From a virus: a DNA stretch of 38,885 nucleotides. The position numbers and the translations under genes were made by a program. The notes below the pieces were generated by a model. That model worked only from the letters and a program-made list of their open reading frames with translations. It was not told the origin of the DNA and searched no databases. Each line of letters begins with the position of its first letter. Within the stretch, counting starts at the first letter, position 1. The DNA lies in the IMG/VR virus record IMGVR_UViG_3300033144_001637, positions 1 to 38,885 of that record; one strand, 5' to 3'. Shown in pieces: positions 2,348 through 13,419 of this stretch.

Positions 2348-2415
2348 AAAACAGTGGCTCCGGGACAAGCGTCTTCGCGTGGAGAGTTTTCCCTGGCACT
2401 CCTGGAGACGCTGAT

Positions 2416-4722
2416 ATGTATCGGGCCACTTATGATGCTGACTATAATGGAATGATTGACATAGAAGCTGGAGGGTTCAATGAAAACATATCAGGCTTGA
2501 CAGGCCTTCTCAAGGTAACTGCGGGGGCTCCATCGGCCATTACAGATAGCTCTTCTAATTGGGACGATGCTTACACAGAACGCTTGAGATGGGATGGCGG
2601 TGCGACTGATTTAGTGGCTGCAACCGGACGGACAAGTTTAGGTTTGGGATCTGCGGCCCTACGCGACGCTGAGGATGTCTTAACAGACGGATCGAACTTA
2701 CCGGACGGAGCAGCAATTAAAACCTACGGAGATGCTAATTGGGGGGCAGGGTTATGGACTGCTTCTGGATCTGATATTTATTTTGACACTGGCAAGGTGG
2801 CCGTTGGTCATTCATCTTTTGCCAATGATTATAAATTTCATGTTACCACAACGGCCACAGATAGCCATTCGGCGGCTTTAAGGGTGGTCCATAGTGGAAT
2901 TACTGCCGGAACCGCATGGGGCGGATATTTCGCGTCCACTGGTGCTGGGTTGTCTAATGTTGCCCTATATGCCACGGCCACAGGTAGTACATATAACTAC
3001 GCTGCGATATTCGCAGCCGGGAATGTTGGGATCGGGGACACCACTCCTGATACAGCCTTGGACGTGGTTGGAACCGTGACAGCGACGGCTTTTGCGGGAC
3101 CTTTGACCGGAGCAGTTACGGGGAACGTGACCGGAAACCTAACGGGTAATGTAACGGGAAACCTAACCGGAGTCGCGTCCACGGCTACGGCCTTGGCTAA
3201 TGCCAGGGATATTGGAGGGGTTTCGTTTAATGGAACCGCAAACATCGTCCCGGAAACAAATGCGATCATAGATGAAAGTGGAGACACCTCTTGCTACCTT
3301 ACTTATGTGAGTTCTGCTACAGGAGCCTTGCAACTTAAAACGGGTACTAATCTTACCTTCAATTCGAGTTCGGGAGTTTTAACGGCTACCGGATTTTCAG
3401 GGCCTTTAACTGGCAACGCCACAACGGCGAGTCATGCATCTGATCTTAACCTGCCAGGAATAGAAGCACAAGGGGATATTGCGTACTATAACGGTTCTAA
3501 TTGGGCCAGGTTGCCACAGTCTACAAGTGGGTATGTCCTAACAACTAAAGGACCTGGAGCTAATCCTATATGGGCTGCCGGTGGTGGTGGGTCTGGAGAC
3601 ATTACAGGTGTTATAGCTGGATCAGGCTTGACAGGGGGTGGACTTTCAGGTGACGTGACCCTAAATGTAGGAGGGAGTTCAACGATCACCGTGGCGGCTA
3701 ACAGTCTCAGTGTCGCCACTTCTTCTATTGGGAGTACGCAACTGGCTTCAACTGCCGTGACACCTGGGAGCTATACCTCAACCAATTTAACCGTGGATGC
3801 TGATGGTAGGATCACGGCGGCCTCCAGCGGTTCGGGGGGGAGTGGAACGGGGTACACTCTCATTTACAATGCAGATAATTATTCGACCGGACATGGTACG
3901 CAAGCCGCAGTTCAAGCAGCCATAAATGCTGCCGATGATGCTAATCAGGGGGGAACGGTTTACTTGAGTAAAGGGGTTTGGACATTTACTTCCGGCGTAA
4001 CCGTGAATGATGTTAGAATACACATCCAGGGGGCAGGGAAAGGGGCCACTGAAATAGCCCTTACTGGCGGGACTAAGGGGATAACCTTTACGGGGACCTC
4101 CTATTATTGCGGGGTCCACGACCTTAGCTTTAGGTCCACGTCTTCAAGGATGGCCATTTACTTAACTAATGGGGGCGCAGGGAATTACAGCAACTTCACG
4201 GACCTCCATTTTGGGGAAGGGATATCCTATGGAATTAGGATAGGTTATCTTTGTGGGTGGGGGTTGGCAAGCAATATCTCATCAACGGCGGCAACAAGTA
4301 TGCAAGCCATTATCCATTTTGACACCGGGGCTGCTTCATGGGCTCAAAATCCGACCGGGTGGGTAATCAACAATGTGAACGGTGACACAAGAAGGGCCGG
4401 GATACTAATGACCGGGAACTCTTTTGGGGATGCTGTCTTTAGCAACTTAAATATCCATATTGCTTCTGGAGCGTCTTCTGTGTGCGGGGTTGAAATGGTT
4501 GGTGGAGGGGCTTATTCTTCAAACATAACGATAATGAATATTCACCTTGACGGCATGGGAACAGGGGTCTTGGGCGCAGGAGAAGCCACAATTAAGGCAA
4601 CAAATTGCAATAAAATAACAGCCCTTGGAATTGCCAAGGGAGGATATGTTACTAACTATGTAGACTTTTCAGGATCGTCTTCATATTATTACATTTATAC
4701 TGGCGGCGTAGGGTCAGGATGA
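2416..4722 (+). CDS. Tailspike / tail fibre with a C-terminal right-handed beta-helix (pectate-lyase-like depolymerase) domain
   Basis: Fibre motifs NWDDAYTERLRWDGGA and WTASGSDIYFDTGKVAVG. A TGNV/TGNL tetrapeptide repeat. The C-terminal part (GGTVYLSKGVWTFTSGVTVNDVRIHIQGAGKGATEI, repeated G-rich strands) is typical of the pectate-lyase-3 / tailspike fold. GGAGA lies 7 nt upstream of the ATG. The ORF ends in a TGA-TAA double stop. Confidence 0.65.
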   Translation: MYRATYDADYNGMIDIEAGGFNENISGLTGLLKVTAGAPSAITDSSSNWDDAYTERLRWDGGATDLVAATGRTSLGLGSAALRDAEDVLTDGSNLPDGAAIKTYGDANWGAGLWTASGSDIYFDTGKVAVGHSSFANDYKFHVTTTATDSHSAALRVVHSGITAGTAWGGYFASTGAGLSNVALYATATGSTYNYAAIFAAGNVGIGDTTPDTALDVVGTVTATAFAGPLTGAVTGNVTGNLTGNVTGNLTGVASTATALANARDIGGVSFNGTANIVPETNAIIDESGDTSCYLTYVSSATGALQLKTGTNLTFNSSSGVLTATGFSGPLTGNATTASHASDLNLPGIEAQGDIAYYNGSNWARLPQSTSGYVLTTKGPGANPIWAAGGGGSGDITGVIAGSGLTGGGLSGDVTLNVGGSSTITVAANSLSVATSSIGSTQLASTAVTPGSYTSTNLTVDADGRITAASSGSGGSGTGYTLIYNADNYSTGHGTQAAVQAAINAADDANQGGTVYLSKGVWTFTSGVTVNDVRIHIQGAGKGATEIALTGGTKGITFTGTSYYCGVHDLSFRSTSSRMAIYLTNGGAGNYSNFTDLHFGEGISYGIRIGYLCGWGLASNISSTAATSMQAIIHFDTGAASWAQNPTGWVINNVNGDTRRAGILMTGNSFGDAVFSNLNIHIASGASSVCGVEMVGGGAYSSNITIMNIHLDGMGTGVLGAGEATIKATNCNKITALGIAKGGYVTNYVDFSGSSSYYYIYTGGVGSG

Positions 4723-8842: not shown

Positions 8843-9505
8843 TTAAAATAGTTTTTGTTGCCTGGTTTCTCTCTCAAACCTCTCACAAGCCGCCTTAAAG
8901 TATTCTTCGTCAATTTCGCATATATCCAGGTCATACCCCTCATGCCAGCAAGCTATAGCCGAGCTAAATGACCCGCCGTGTGTGTCTAAGATTGTTTGTC
9001 CGGGTTTGGCGTAGTTGGTGAGTAACCAGCGGTAGAGGGATACGGGTTTTTGGGTGGGGTGGATGCGGTGTTCTTTGGCGGCCATGTTTTGCTGAAGCAT
9101 ACCCTGCCATTTCCAAGTGAATTTTCTTACCGCTGAATTGAAAGATGTCCAAGCAAGTTCGCAATCTGCAAAATCGTTTTCTCCATTGTCTTTGTCCCAG
9201 ACAATAAAACAAGAGCTTGGTGGTAACTTAAAAAAGTTACCACCCCATATTATTTGGTTTTGTGAAATTCGTTGTAGTTCTAAAAAATATTCTTTATTTG
9301 ATATCTCTCTATCCCAATTTTTCGGAGTAAACTTCGTAGTTTCAGCCATACAACCCCTGGAATGATTTTTAAGCCCGTCCTCACCTATCCCATAAGGCGG
9401 GTCCACAATAGCCAGGTGATAATGGTCATCTGGCGCATCGGCCATTAGCCCCATACAATCCCCTCTATCCGCTCTAATCAGCGGCTTATGGGATAGCTCT
9501 ATCAT
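8843..9505 (-). CDS. DNA methyltransferase, N6-adenine/N4-cytosine type (beta class, DPPY)
   Basis: IVDPPYGIG (motif IV) sits near the N-terminus. An AdoMet motif I-like ILDTHGGSFSSAIA sits near the C-terminus. This is the permuted order of the PF01555-type enzymes. No cognate nuclease is nearby, so it is an orphan MTase. Confidence 0.75.
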   Translation of the reverse strand: MIELSHKPLIRADRGDCMGLMADAPDDHYHLAIVDPPYGIGEDGLKNHSRGCMAETTKFTPKNWDREISNKEYFLELQRISQNQIIWGGNFFKLPPSSCFIVWDKDNGENDFADCELAWTSFNSAVRKFTWKWQGMLQQNMAAKEHRIHPTQKPVSLYRWLLTNYAKPGQTILDTHGGSFSSAIACWHEGYDLDICEIDEEYFKAACERFERETRQQKLF

Positions 9506-10558: not shown

Positions 10559-11008
10559 TCATCGTGCCTTGACTGCTTCCGTGAAATCTTTGAAATAGCC
10601 AAGGTATTTCCGTTTATGGTCTACTTGGATGTCGGCTCCCCATTTATCATGTTGGGTGTGCCAATAAACTCCAGTGACCCCGCTAATATTGTCCTTGCGC
10701 TGCTTGCTGTTCCGGGTATTACATTGCGCTGATACATGGCGAAGGTTTACCCATCTATCATCGTCTCTTATCCGGTTAATGTGATCCATTTGATTTTCGG
10801 GAAAATATCCCTCCATGTATAACCAGGCCAAACGTGAGGCGAGATATTTTTTACCATCAAGCCGAATCCGCCTGTAACCCTTTACGTTTACGCCTCCACC
10901 CAGGTCTCTCGCCGCATACCTTCCCCTTGAGATCTTCCAGGTGAAAATCCCCGTTATTGGGTTGTAATCCAAGAGTTCTTTGAGCCTATCCTGGGTCAGC
11001 TTACCCAT
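10559..11008 (-). CDS. HNH homing endonuclease with an AP2-type DNA-binding domain (copy 1, ends at an in-frame TGA)
   Basis: DHINRIRDDDRWVNLRHVSAQCNTRN is the HNH_3-type catalytic motif. SGVTGVYWHTQHDKWGADIQVDHKRKYLGYF is an AP2 domain. It is a paralogue of 17579..18106. Confidence 0.8.
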   Translation of the reverse strand: MGKLTQDRLKELLDYNPITGIFTWKISRGRYAARDLGGGVNVKGYRRIRLDGKKYLASRLAWLYMEGYFPENQMDHINRIRDDDRWVNLRHVSAQCNTRNSKQRKDNISGVTGVYWHTQHDKWGADIQVDHKRKYLGYFKDFTEAVKAR

Positions 11009-11574: not shown

Positions 11575-11997
11575 ATTATCTTTCTCCGTAAAAGATAACC
11601 CTGGCAGAGCAACCGTCCAAGAAACAGACCCTTCCGACTGCTTGGCGATTGATACCAGGGTCCCCGCCCCGCCGATCTGCTGACCCTTCGCTTATTGTGT
11701 CGGGTTCTGAGTGTCGAACGGGGCAGGCGGTCACTAAGCTCAAATGTGAGGGCGGAGTGGGTTGATGGTGGGCGTTAGCATCCCTAACGCCTCTTTTCTT
11801 GTGAACCGGCACAAGGAGGTGAACCATCTTTTCTCCGCCTGGACCCACAGGAACAAGAACAACACTCAGACTCCGCGGAGGAGTTTTGAGTATGCTGCTT
11901 TTGAAGGATTGCTCCCGCCACCTTGCGGCTCCATCACGGTGAGCGAAGTTTGTTTCCTGGGGGTTCATATTACCTCACATTTCAATTTAGCGAATGA
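11575..11997 (-). ncRNA. Candidate structured RNA or other non-coding element (GC-rich spacer between the MTase and exonuclease genes)
   Basis: This roughly 420-nt gap is by far the largest in a tightly packed operon. It has many nested complementary segments (see findings). The only ORFs across it, one on each strand, have R/P/H-rich, junk-like translations. Confidence 0.35.
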
Positions 11998-12996
11998 TTA
12001 ATATTTAAGATTTTTTATCGCTTGCATTATCGGCACTACAACTTGAGGGACTATGGCGTTTCCGAGTGATTTAAGTCGGTCCACCCGAGAGGGTATCCCA
12101 TGAGCCACTCGACCCATGTTGGGTTCAACTGTCCACCATCCGGGTGAGAACGGTTCAAGTACATATAAGGATGATGTTCTGATTCCTTCCCTCCCCTTAG
12201 TCCGTTTGCCGCTGAAGGAGTCGGCCACAACTTTGTTTCCCTCACTTGATCTTGTAGTCTCAGACTGTGGTGCATTCCTGATGGACGTTTCAGCTTGTTC
12301 TCTGCTAAATATGCCAGCATTTCCTTTGATGCTGTTCCCCCTGCACAAGTGTCCGGTGTGAGCCACAATCCAGACCCGATCCCGTCTGTGCGGGGCGTTT
12401 TGGGCGCAAGCTGGAATAATAAACGCTTGTGTGGCGTAGCCTTGATCTTCCAGGTCAGAAAGCACCGTGTCGAGTGCCATATTGACGATTCCAGCAACAT
12501 TCTCGCCAATGACCCAACGGGGCCGGACTGCCTTAATAACCTCAAACATTTCCGGCCAGAGATAACGGTCATCTTCCTTGCCTCTTCGCTTCCCGGCGAC
12601 ACTAAAACCTTGACAGGGGAATCCCCCTGTGAGAAGATCGATATTTGTTGAGGTATTTTTTGGATAGGAATATTCCCTTTTTCTATTGCCTTCACAGCTT
12701 TGATTAGTTTGGCTTGACCATCTACTCCCTGATTGCTTTTTATCCTCGGGCTGTTCCCCTTCCATTCCACTTCTCGAACTACATCTATTGTGTCGGTTGC
12801 CTGTGGTGTAGGCCAAAATGTTATTGACATCTCTCACATCCTCCACGATAGGTACATCAGGCCAATGTTTCCTGAGTACCTTCTGACAAAACTTATCCTG
12901 TTCAACAAAACAAACGACTTCATGTTCCTCCCCCCATACGGTTCGAGCGGCAAGGGCGAACCCTCCTATCCCTGAAAAAAGATCTAAATGTTTCAT
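11998..12996 (-). CDS. DNA (cytosine-5)-methyltransferase
   Basis: The full motif set is present in order: DLFSGIGGF (I), GGFPCQGFS (IV), GENVAG (VI), QNAPHRRDRVWIVA (VIII), RVDRLKSLGNAIVPQV (X). It is the first gene downstream of the leftward promoter. Confidence 0.85.
   Translation of the reverse strand: MKHLDLFSGIGGFALAARTVWGEEHEVVCFVEQDKFCQKVLRKHWPDVPIVEDVRDVNNILAYTTGNRHNRCSSRSGMEGEQPEDKKQSGSRWSSQTNQSCEGNRKREYSYPKNTSTNIDLLTGGFPCQGFSVAGKRRGKEDDRYLWPEMFEVIKAVRPRWVIGENVAGIVNMALDTVLSDLEDQGYATQAFIIPACAQNAPHRRDRVWIVAHTGHLCRGNSIKGNAGIFSREQAETSIRNAPQSETTRSSEGNKVVADSFSGKRTKGREGIRTSSLYVLEPFSPGWWTVEPNMGRVAHGIPSRVDRLKSLGNAIVPQVVVPIMQAIKNLKY
12051..12830 (-). CDS. 259-codon ORF nested in the +1 frame of the C5-MTase gene, with WPTP and EWLMGYPLGWT motifs (possible overprinted gene)
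   Basis: The frame is open for 259 codons inside another gene. The ATG at 12830 is preceded by GGAGGA (12839..12844) with an 8-nt spacer. The translation contains FWPTPQATD, LWLTPDT, LWPTPSAANG and LNPTWVEWLMGYPLGWTDL. Confidence 0.4.
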   Translation of the reverse strand: MSITFWPTPQATDTIDVVREVEWKGNSPRIKSNQGVDGQAKLIKAVKAIEKGNIPIQKIPQQISIFSQGDSPVKVLVSPGSEEARKMTVISGRKCLRLLRQSGPVGSLARMLLESSIWHSTRCFLTWKIKATPHKRLLFQLAPKTPRTDGIGSGLWLTPDTCAGGTASKEMLAYLAENKLKRPSGMHHSLRLQDQVRETKLWPTPSAANGLRGGKESEHHPYMYLNRSHPDGGQLNPTWVEWLMGYPLGWTDLNHSETP

Positions 12997-13049
12997 TACA
13001 TTTCAGTCTATAAATTGTTGACGTTTACTATTCGTTAATCTTGGTCTGA

Positions 13050-13078
13050 AGTATAGACGATAAAGAATAGTTTGTCAA
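13050..13078 (-). promoter_or_regulatory. Leftward sigma70-type promoter for the early minus-strand operon
   Basis: On the minus strand: TTGACA (13078..13073), a 17-nt spacer, then TATACT (13055..13050), about 55 nt upstream of the MTase ATG. Confidence 0.6.
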
Positions 13079-13155
13079 GCAAAATCTTTCACTTTTTCAT
13101 ATAAATCGTAATTCACTAATATATTCAAACCCTTAAAACAAGTTAAAAAAAAGAC

Positions 13156-13185
13156 TTGACATTTAAATTTTAGACGTGATACCTT
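13156..13185 (+). promoter_or_regulatory. Rightward sigma70-type promoter (extended -10) for the HTH regulator / replication operon
   Basis: TTGACA (13156..13161), an 18-nt spacer containing TG (13177-78), then TACCTT (13180..13185). It is followed by AAAGGAG and the ATG at 13207. Confidence 0.45.
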
Positions 13186-13206
13186 TCGCACAAAGGAGAC
13201 TACACA

Positions 13207-13419
13207 ATGAATTATAGGAAAACTTTAAAACTCAATCAGGCAAAAGTGAAGGCGGAGATGAAAAGGCAGGGGTTGTCTTATCAGGACCTCGGAGATAAGC
13301 TCCATATCTCCAGACAGGCAGTTGGTTACTATTTCTACAATAAGCCAGCCCTGTCTATGAGAACAGTATCGAGGTTGGCCTGGGCGCTTAACTGCGATCC
13401 TAAAGATCTGTTAATTTAA
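13207..13419 (+). CDS. XRE/Cro-family helix-turn-helix transcriptional regulator
   Basis: The 70-aa protein has QGLSYQDLGDKLHISRQAVGYYF, a classic HTH_3 motif. It is the first gene of a divergent promoter region. Confidence 0.75.
   Translation: MNYRKTLKLNQAKVKAEMKRQGLSYQDLGDKLHISRQAVGYYFYNKPALSMRTVSRLAWALNCDPKDLLI

Follow-up and report, generated by a model that had tools for sequence, protein, structure and literature searches.

INTRODUCTION

M.EcoHK31I (YGGCCR) was described by Lee, Kam and Shaw in 1995 as a C5 methyltransferase made of two polypeptides, and according to PMC2836561 and PMC3404938 its β chain is encoded inside the α gene in another reading frame, α carries motifs I-VIII, motif X and the target recognition domain (TRD), β carries motif IX, and association of both chains is needed for activity. 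PMC2836561 also reports that the first 42 residues of β are dispensable in vitro and that internal Met codons can be used as starts, and the plasmid names M38 and C23 given there imply subunits of about 38 and 23 kDa. In solved C5 methylases, the small domain consists of the variable region and motif IX (PMC3404938). Here we analyse a stretch of viral DNA of 38,885 nt (IMG/VR record IMGVR_UViG_3300033144_001637, positions 1 to 38,885; referred to as the window), in which a C5-cytosine DNA methyltransferase gene (frame A) encloses a second open reading frame (ORF; frame B) at +1. We consider it likely that the product of this locus is an orphan phage enzyme of the M.EcoHK31I type, a C5-cytosine DNA methyltransferase of two polypeptides that are independently translated, with frame A as the gene of the large subunit, α, and frame B as the putative gene of the small subunit, β.

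Compared by its published description, M.EcoHK31I resembles the window locus in several respects. The gene of the large chain encloses the whole small-chain ORF in a different frame, motifs I-VIII and motif X belong to the large chain, motif IX (putative in the window) comes at the end of the small chain, the chain sizes are similar (about 38/23 kDa there and 332/259 aa here), and the N-terminal part of β is variable or dispensable, with internal starts possible. Unlike M.EcoHK31I, which belongs to a cellular restriction-modification system, the window gene lies in an early operon of a phage and would encode an orphan methylase, and its β has an extra N-terminal WPTP module within a 56-residue insert of α. 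M.EaeI is an isoschizomer of M.EcoHK31I. The orphan prophage C5 methylase BA_3814 (Bacillus anthracis LambdaBa01) has been predicted to share the specificity of M.EaeI or M.EagI, in a group that includes EcoHK31I (PMC4722110), and it may be a further, unrecognised nested α/β pair.

M.AquI is likewise a heterodimeric C5 methylase whose second polypeptide supplies the small DNA-recognition part (PMC3404938), but its β carries motifs IX and X and its ORFs are consecutive, whereas in the window motif X is in α and the ORFs are nested in different frames. The Rz/Rz1 spanins, an example of long nested phage genes on one strand, are functionally linked, complex-forming proteins encoded in different frames of one DNA, with an inner gene often missed by gene callers (PMC11445585 for Rz1); compared with them, the methylase overlap is much longer (190-350 codons) and spans a highly conserved enzymatic core, so that both frames are strongly constrained. 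In Paenibacillus larvae phages, GenBank annotation names both nested coding sequences as methyltransferase ('DNA cytosine methyltransferase'; LIKHA_51 and LIKHA_52 in phage Likha), and the overlap is not discussed in the genomics paper on those phages. Both frames of these pairs are homologous to those of the window, with the same +1 nesting; they belong with phrog_363 and phrog_1008, the latter being the B family in PHROGs, and they share the features PGSEKARKMT...LWPTP...LNPxWVECLMGFPIGWT. They differ from the window in identity (about 47% for A and about 40% for the B tail) and in having a β without the N-terminal WPTP extension.

RESULTS

Layout of the two frames

In the ORF listing of the window, frame A occupies 12996..11998 (332 aa). 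Frame B, at 12830..12051 (259 aa), is wholly inside frame A and at +1 relative to it; these ORFs and the sites described in this section all lie on the minus strand. Since the start of frame B is offset by 166 nt from that of A, each B codon consists of positions 2 and 3 of one A codon and position 1 of the next. The catalytic domain of A shows motifs I (FxGxG, AdoMet binding), IV (PCQ, with the catalytic Cys), VI (ENV), VIII (RxR) and X (GNxV), and its motifs include DLFSGIGGF (12984-12958), GGFPCQGFS (12627-12601), ENV (12504-12496), QNAPHRRDRVWIVA (12402-12361) and, as motif X, LGNAIVPQV (12040..12066), followed by a confident C-terminal helix. Frame B reads FWPTPQATD (12818-12792), LWLTPDT (12368-12348), LWPTPSAANG (12230-12201) and a motif-IX-like tail, LNPTWVEWLMGYPLGWTDL (12072..12128), which is overprinted on EPNMGRVAHGIPSRVDRLK of frame A. 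KVVADSFSGKR in A and KLWPTPSAANG in B are one nucleotide stretch read one base apart, and the stop codon of B (12053-12051) lies inside motif X of A.

Three parts of the overlap can be told apart. An insert of low complexity in A (residues 59-114; 12655..12822) corresponds in B to the extra N-terminal WPTP module, FWPTPQATD...GNSPRIKSNQGVDGQAKL. A doubly constrained core (12361..12627) holds motifs IV-VIII of A and, in B, PGSEEARKMTVISGRKC...SLARMLLESS.W.ST.C.LTWK...RLLFQLAP.TPRT, with nearly invariant B columns. A variable region (12127..12360) has the two other WPTP modules of B; here B is the constrained frame and A residues 213-290 are poorly conserved and for the most part predicted to be disordered.

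The ATG of B (12830) is preceded, after an 8-nt spacer, by a GGAGGA Shine-Dalgarno sequence (12839..12844) that lies within the A codons V-E-D. A B-frame stop is found two codons 5' of this ATG, which is therefore the earliest possible start of frame B. AGGAG or GGAGG at comparable spacing also precedes other genes of the window phage, and no Shine-Dalgarno sequence is evident ahead of the ATG of frame A. The original prediction, made from the DNA of the window alone, had given the coordinates of both ORFs exactly, and each motif it quoted, the paired A and B peptides from the same nucleotides, the GGAGGA with its spacer and an insert of about 60 aa ahead of motif IV were all confirmed.

Nesting across relatives

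A homologue of B was found at +1 of a C5 methylase gene in 263/263 related loci, from phages and from bacteria of many phyla, and the B frame was open whether the loci had been chosen through B or through A. In one set of 85 loci, 80 from IMG/VR found through B and five from GenBank or Escherichia coli found through whole-gene DNA, all 85 had a C5 methylase with B at +1. All 14 full-length IMG/VR loci found through A had a +1 frame open for 165-314 codons with a B match at E 2.5e-4 or better, and a +2 frame open for at most 94. Another 80 IMG/VR loci were found through the A alignment; the longest +1 ORF of every one matched the B hidden Markov model (HMM) at 98 bits or more, with a median length of 250 codons versus 62 for +2. 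The same arrangement was present in 80/80 bacterial genome contigs found through B (Bacillota, Bacteroidota, Pseudomonadota, Patescibacteria, Acidobacteriota, Verrucomicrobiota, Spirochaetota and others). A nested pair of this kind is also present in Paenibacillus phage Likha, phage C72C1 and Lacticaseibacillus phage R9.1. Neither a stand-alone B gene nor B in another frame was seen in the 263 loci.

A B-like ORF at +1 of the annotated methylase was also found in four distant phages from GenBank (Mycobacterium phage KBG, Salmonella phage S9-5, Acinetobacter phage ABMM1 and Synechococcus phage Ssp-JY42). We had expected in-frame, single-polypeptide relatives with WPTP and LNPxFVEWLMG, for example in mycobacteriophages; KBG and the three other distant phages instead have the +1 arrangement. 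The idea that the boxes of frame B come from another class of phage DNA methylase found no support in that form; in all cases checked they were the +1 frame of the same C5 methylase class.

To compare frame B with chance, the synonymous codons of frame A were permuted in 20,000 trials, in which the protein and the codon set were kept. The longest open +1 stretch of the permuted genes had a mean of 97 codons and reached at least 259 in 5e-5 of the trials, and the real +2 frame of A is open for only 49 codons. Against a family HMM built without the window, frame B scored 288 bits, compared with 67 +/- 16 bits (maximum 112) for the +1 translations of 500 codon-permuted A genes; thus, part, not most, of the likeness of B to its family is inherited from the conserved protein sequence of A. 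The nested frame B is far beyond chance.

Selection on the two frames

Synonymous constraint was measured at alignment columns with the same degenerate amino acid in two A proteins, for pairs less than 60% identical. In the set selected through B, the codon was identical at 0.634 of the columns inside the overlap and at 0.367 outside the B ORF, and the four-fold third position at 0.67 and 0.33, respectively. The set selected through A gave 0.526 inside and 0.354 outside for codons, and 0.544 and 0.319 for four-fold third positions. A strong excess of synonymous constraint in A was thus found over the B overlap only.

Along the gene, the frame that is better conserved changes. In a B-guided alignment, both proteins are conserved over motifs IV-VIII (amino-acid identity 0.38-0.73 for A and 0.32-0.63 for B), and the third position of A is the least conserved there, yet it remains at 0.46-0.68. 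From the first WPTP module on, the pattern is reversed and the third position of B, which is the first of A, is the most variable; identity in the WPTP blocks is 0.39-0.51 for B versus 0.21-0.36 for A, and in the tail it is 0.91 versus 0.76. When the N-terminal insert of the window was compared with that of its closest relative (protein P0001, locus L188), the differences at B codon positions 1/2/3 were 0.27/0.15/0.53, and identity was 62% in B and 31% in A. These patterns indicate that purifying selection acts on B in the variable region, the motif-IX-like tail and the insert, and that A merely follows; given the B-frame selection, the 56-residue insert of α exists to encode the extra β module. 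The proposal that loops of A accommodate B is upheld by identity, codon pattern and the AlphaFold2 (AF2) model described below, A being variable or disordered where B is constrained.

Judged by the comparative sequence data, β is under purifying selection across hundreds of loci and the overprinted gene pair is genuine. Of the readings offered by the original prediction, that of a true overprinted pair is therefore supported by the homologues, the conserved +1 position, the synonymous constraint and the Shine-Dalgarno sequence; what it had missed is that the architecture was already known experimentally for M.EcoHK31I (PMC2836561 and PMC3404938).

The protein of frame A

Frame A encodes the core of a C5-cytosine methyltransferase, which is intact and shows motifs I-VIII as well as X. 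It matches PF00145 (1.5e-37), TIGR00675 above its cutoff and phrog_363 (1.6e-76). With phmmer, A residues 2-58 align with 13-65 of M.HhaI and residues 115-214 with 68-172, and the gap between these two blocks defines residues 59-114 as an insert. With 112 homologues as input, AF2 gave a model of A with a predicted template modelling score (pTM) of 0.65 and a predicted local distance difference test (pLDDT) above 90 in the core, and in a Foldseek search this core matches M.HaeIII (1dct) and M.HhaI at E about 1e-11 over ~222 columns.

No folded small domain (variable region/TRD and motif IX) was found in the A polypeptide by HMM alignments, AF2 or amino-acid identity. The Pfam and TIGR alignments of A end after motif VIII, at about position 163-195 of profiles of 324-329, and A residues 78-104 and 225-299 have pLDDT below 50 without secondary structure; identity over 225-299 is 0.10-0.25. 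Frame A therefore carries motifs I-VIII and X without a foldable variable region or motif IX. The predicted disorder of A coincides with the WPTP modules and the LNPxWVEWLMGYPxGWT tail of B. Motif X (LGNAIVPQV, residues 311-319) was assigned by inspection, as the HMM alignment fell short of it, and residues L308, L311, G312 and N313 are invariant in the 112 homologues.

The protein family of frame B

Frame B has 6,227 homologues at E <= 1e-3 in a collection of 5.8 billion proteins, and it matches phrog_1008 ('DNA methyltransferase') at E = 8.5e-30 (B 61-254 with 36-282 of the 329 profile positions). Frame B matched no Pfam or NCBIfam family, and none of the 120 homologues listed has a Pfam domain; these are 182-355 aa long with one to five WPTP-type modules each. 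The family consensus starts with ...PGSxEARxMTVTSGRKC..SGPLGSLVRMLLESSxWRSTRCxLTWKxxATPxxRLLFRLVPSTPRT..., continues with LWPTPxAxD modules and ends in GGQLNPTWVEWLMGFPxGWTDL. When the B family was aligned with the M.HhaI family by hhalign, the sole alignment paired B 227-250 (RSHPDGGQLNPTWVEWLMGYPLGW, GGQLNPTWVEWLMGYPLGW) with HhaI 266-289 (LVNGKTRKLHPRECARVMGYPDSY), which is motif IX, at E = 0.13 (the M.HhaI sequence used is 100% identical to a database protein). By eye, L-x-P-x6-MGYP is common to the B tail and motif IX of HhaI. This alignment suggests, short of proof, that the tail is motif IX.

Starts and ends of the inner gene in relatives

In an E. coli PT62 prophage (NZ_CP090448; locus 1398-2157), the ATG of B lies 4 nt after the GTG of A, and B is the longer protein (251 versus 245 aa). 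The same is seen in the rest of its proteobacterial clade, which includes Salmonella phage S9-5 and Acinetobacter phage ABMM1 and in which β (MSWLFSQAL.EEYS...) starts at an ATG 4 nt past the GTG or ATG of α and is at least as long as α. The RefSeq and GenBank records of this prophage and these two phages leave β unannotated. With starts this close, one ribosome-binding site may serve two starts in two frames. This clade is present in 4/5,426 complete E. coli genomes, always in a prophage, and at least one of the four (NZ_CM129871) has an α with an internal stop, annotated as a pseudogene.

Locus L188, which holds the closest relative of the window's frame B (2370-3827; JGI 3300031673 Ga0307377_10024788), has an α-frame ORF open for 485 codons. 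Its α contains an extra segment of ~150 codons, another frame of which (2555-3004) is an HNH-endonuclease-like ORF, and DDIKTF is duplicated at both flanks; the segment resembles an insertion of a mobile HNH or intron-like element, and it lies just upstream of the β start. In the JGI gene calls for this locus, the HNH ORF and frame B are called and frame A is omitted. In several other IMG/VR loci (L017, 1447-2559; L016; L037), the open B frame covers almost all of α, or continues for at least 50 codons beyond the α stop, with C-terminal tails of this type rich in S, R and K (...SSRKSRxKSS...). The B frame being extended at its ends in several relatives, the ends of β are much more plastic than its core.

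Genomic setting

The window is a complete JGI metagenome contig of a tailed phage or prophage, with genes for a terminase, a portal-type connector, a second methylase, and replication and recombination; a megablast search with 24 kb of it gave no match among GenBank phages. A sigma-70-type promoter-like site, TTGACA, 17 nt, TATACT (13050..13078, minus strand), has 11/12 consensus matches and probably drives the leftward early operon. It lies in a divergent control region (12997-13206) that separates the methylase operon from an XRE-type repressor-like gene reading rightward (13207-13419), and the best promoter match of this region is directed leftward into the methylase gene. The same operon has a second DNA methyltransferase of a different class (8843-9505, minus strand; phrog_23224/phrog_67, 2e-39) and an HNH endonuclease (10559-11008, minus strand; phrog_99, 1.7e-60). 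A RecT-like gene and two exonuclease-like genes are found next to these, a DnaD-like gene is a further neighbour, and the surroundings are thus recombination and replication genes of the phage. The 130-aa ORF directly downstream of the methylase (11576-11968) has no PHROG match. Among the neighbours of the methylase gene, no type II endonuclease was recognised.

DISCUSSION

In the reading that we favour, one early transcript, probably from the TTGACA-17-TATACT promoter at 13078-13050, would carry two overlapping cistrons. Ribosomes initiating at 12996 would make α, the S-adenosylmethionine (AdoMet)-binding catalytic large domain with motifs I-VIII plus motif X, and independent initiation at the internal GGAGGA-N8-ATG (12830) would make β in the +1 frame. 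Through its WPTPxAxD modules, present as repeats, and its C-terminal LNPxWVEWLMGYPxGWT segment, the putative counterpart of motif IX, β would supply the parts of the small DNA-recognition domain that are missing from α. The two chains would associate into an active enzyme, which would methylate the phage DNA, presumably to evade host restriction. In this scheme we infer the translation of β, its association with α, its role in DNA recognition and the anti-restriction purpose.

Several results weigh against this reading. The motif-IX alignment of B is below significance (hhalign E = 0.13, probability <1%), and a search of PDB sequences with frame B and with the B-family profile returned chance matches only and no solved C5 methylase. 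For B alone, AF2 gave a model of low confidence (pLDDT 62, pTM 0.32), and Foldseek found nothing for it in the PDB at E <= 0.001. An in-silico chimera of A motifs I-VIII, the variable region and tail of B and A motif X gained neither score nor extension for PF00145 or TIGR00675 over native A; C-terminal fragments, native or chimeric, scored nothing against Pfam and NCBIfam. Moreover, an ATG with a Shine-Dalgarno sequence was present in the N-terminal part of B in only 36/84 loci; such a sequence precedes 22% of B-frame ATGs versus 8-12% in control frames, and this only mildly positive survey carries little weight because the hosts are mixed. The likeness to M.EcoHK31I is one of architecture, known from its published description. 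According to the literature, the TRD of M.EcoHK31I is in α, whereas here the variable region is constrained in β and has WPTP repeats.

Part of these results would also be expected if frame B were real and selected but encoded no methyltransferase subunit, for instance if the methylase gene merely housed a regulator or an anti-defence factor: no solved C5 methylase is matched significantly by B in sequence or fold, and the chimera brought no gain. We regard this as improbable, since none of the 263 loci had B without a C5 methylase gene, the best and sole profile alignment of B with a canonical methylase is at motif IX, the very motif that α lacks, and the stop codon of B lies exactly at motif X of α. 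In addition, the studied enzyme with the same layout requires both chains (PMC2836561). That frame B is a non-functional by-product of the composition of A and the conservation of its core is hardly credible. Codon-permuted A genes do still reach ~67 bits for the B family and a mean open +1 stretch of 97 codons, but the real gene gives 288 bits and 259 codons (P = 5e-5 for the open frame), four-fold third positions of A are roughly twice as conserved inside the overlap as outside, and conservation of B exceeds that of A in the variable region, the tail and the insert, where the third-position pattern is that of the B frame. The loci are not near-identical copies, pairs above 60% identity having been excluded, and the comparative data effectively refute a compositional by-product.

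The two frames might also be joined by ribosomal frameshifting or transcriptional slippage, giving one canonical polypeptide with motifs I-VIII from A, the variable region and motif IX from B, and motif X from A again. The junction from B to A would read ...GWTDL/KSLGNAIVPQV, in the canonical order of motif IX and then X, and two proteins of the family have in-frame joints: P0007 (281 aa) ends in ...GWTDLNARNAIVPQVAYQIIK, with B in frame with motif X of α, and P0054 (330 aa) begins with MKVLDLFSGI, motif I of α, and continues in frame B. Each of them comes from one short contig and may reflect a sequencing error of one base or a natural fusion into a single chain. Two shifts would be required, an X XXY YYZ heptamer is absent from the B frame across the gene and those in the A frame would lead to +2, and B is conserved, with constraint on the third position of A, for ~75 codons upstream of motif VIII; the B of the window also has its own Shine-Dalgarno sequence and ATG and an N-terminal module under B-frame selection. 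We therefore consider a fusion very unlikely. Frameshifted isoforms, one of the readings first proposed, are disfavoured by the missing B-frame heptamer and by conservation of B far upstream of any useful fusion point; a second, the interconversion of frames by compensated frameshifts, found no support, with B at +1 in 263/263 loci and P0007 and P0054 as the only in-frame fusions seen. Independent translation of α and β is thus the reading we retain.

Beyond the window, a wider proposal is tentative and, taken jointly, perhaps slightly more doubtful than not. It holds that the EcoHK31I layout, instead of being peculiar to one or two restriction-modification enzymes, is ancestral and the rule in a very large clade of C5 methylases from phages and prophages across many bacterial phyla, that the +1 protein supplies the whole DNA-recognition domain and not just motif IX, and that these overlaps (190-350 codons) are among the longest and most widespread doubly constrained same-strand overlaps known in prokaryotic viruses. 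As part of the same proposal, the recognition domain would consist of a variable number (one to five or more) of WPTPxAxD modules, without a Pfam model or solved structure, and specificity would change by added modules, absorbed in the α frame as disordered inserts as in the window. The selection patterns suggest that the recognition region belongs to the inner frame rather than to the outer. The literature searched, whose coverage was incomplete, held no general account of nested methylase genes in phages or of this breadth, and REBASE curators may well know of them. What may be new is the scale, with >6,000 protein clusters, nesting in 263/263 loci, no Pfam family and an inner gene that is mostly unannotated, together with an apparent recognition region in the inner frame.

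The locus is a clean, deep and abundant natural case of two strongly constrained proteins sharing at least 200 codons, and it can be used for testing overlap-detection methods and theories of overprinting. M.EcoHK31I has already been exploited for targeted methylation (PMC2836561), and if β carries DNA recognition, methylation specificity might be swapped or engineered through a small, separate chain. Frame B is uncalled in the source record and unannotated in RefSeq E. coli and in most GenBank phages. As the inner gene is mostly missed, specificity predictions for thousands of phage methylases ignore a probable subunit. Our data suggest that the nested methylase pair is much more widespread than the searched literature implies, and largely unannotated.

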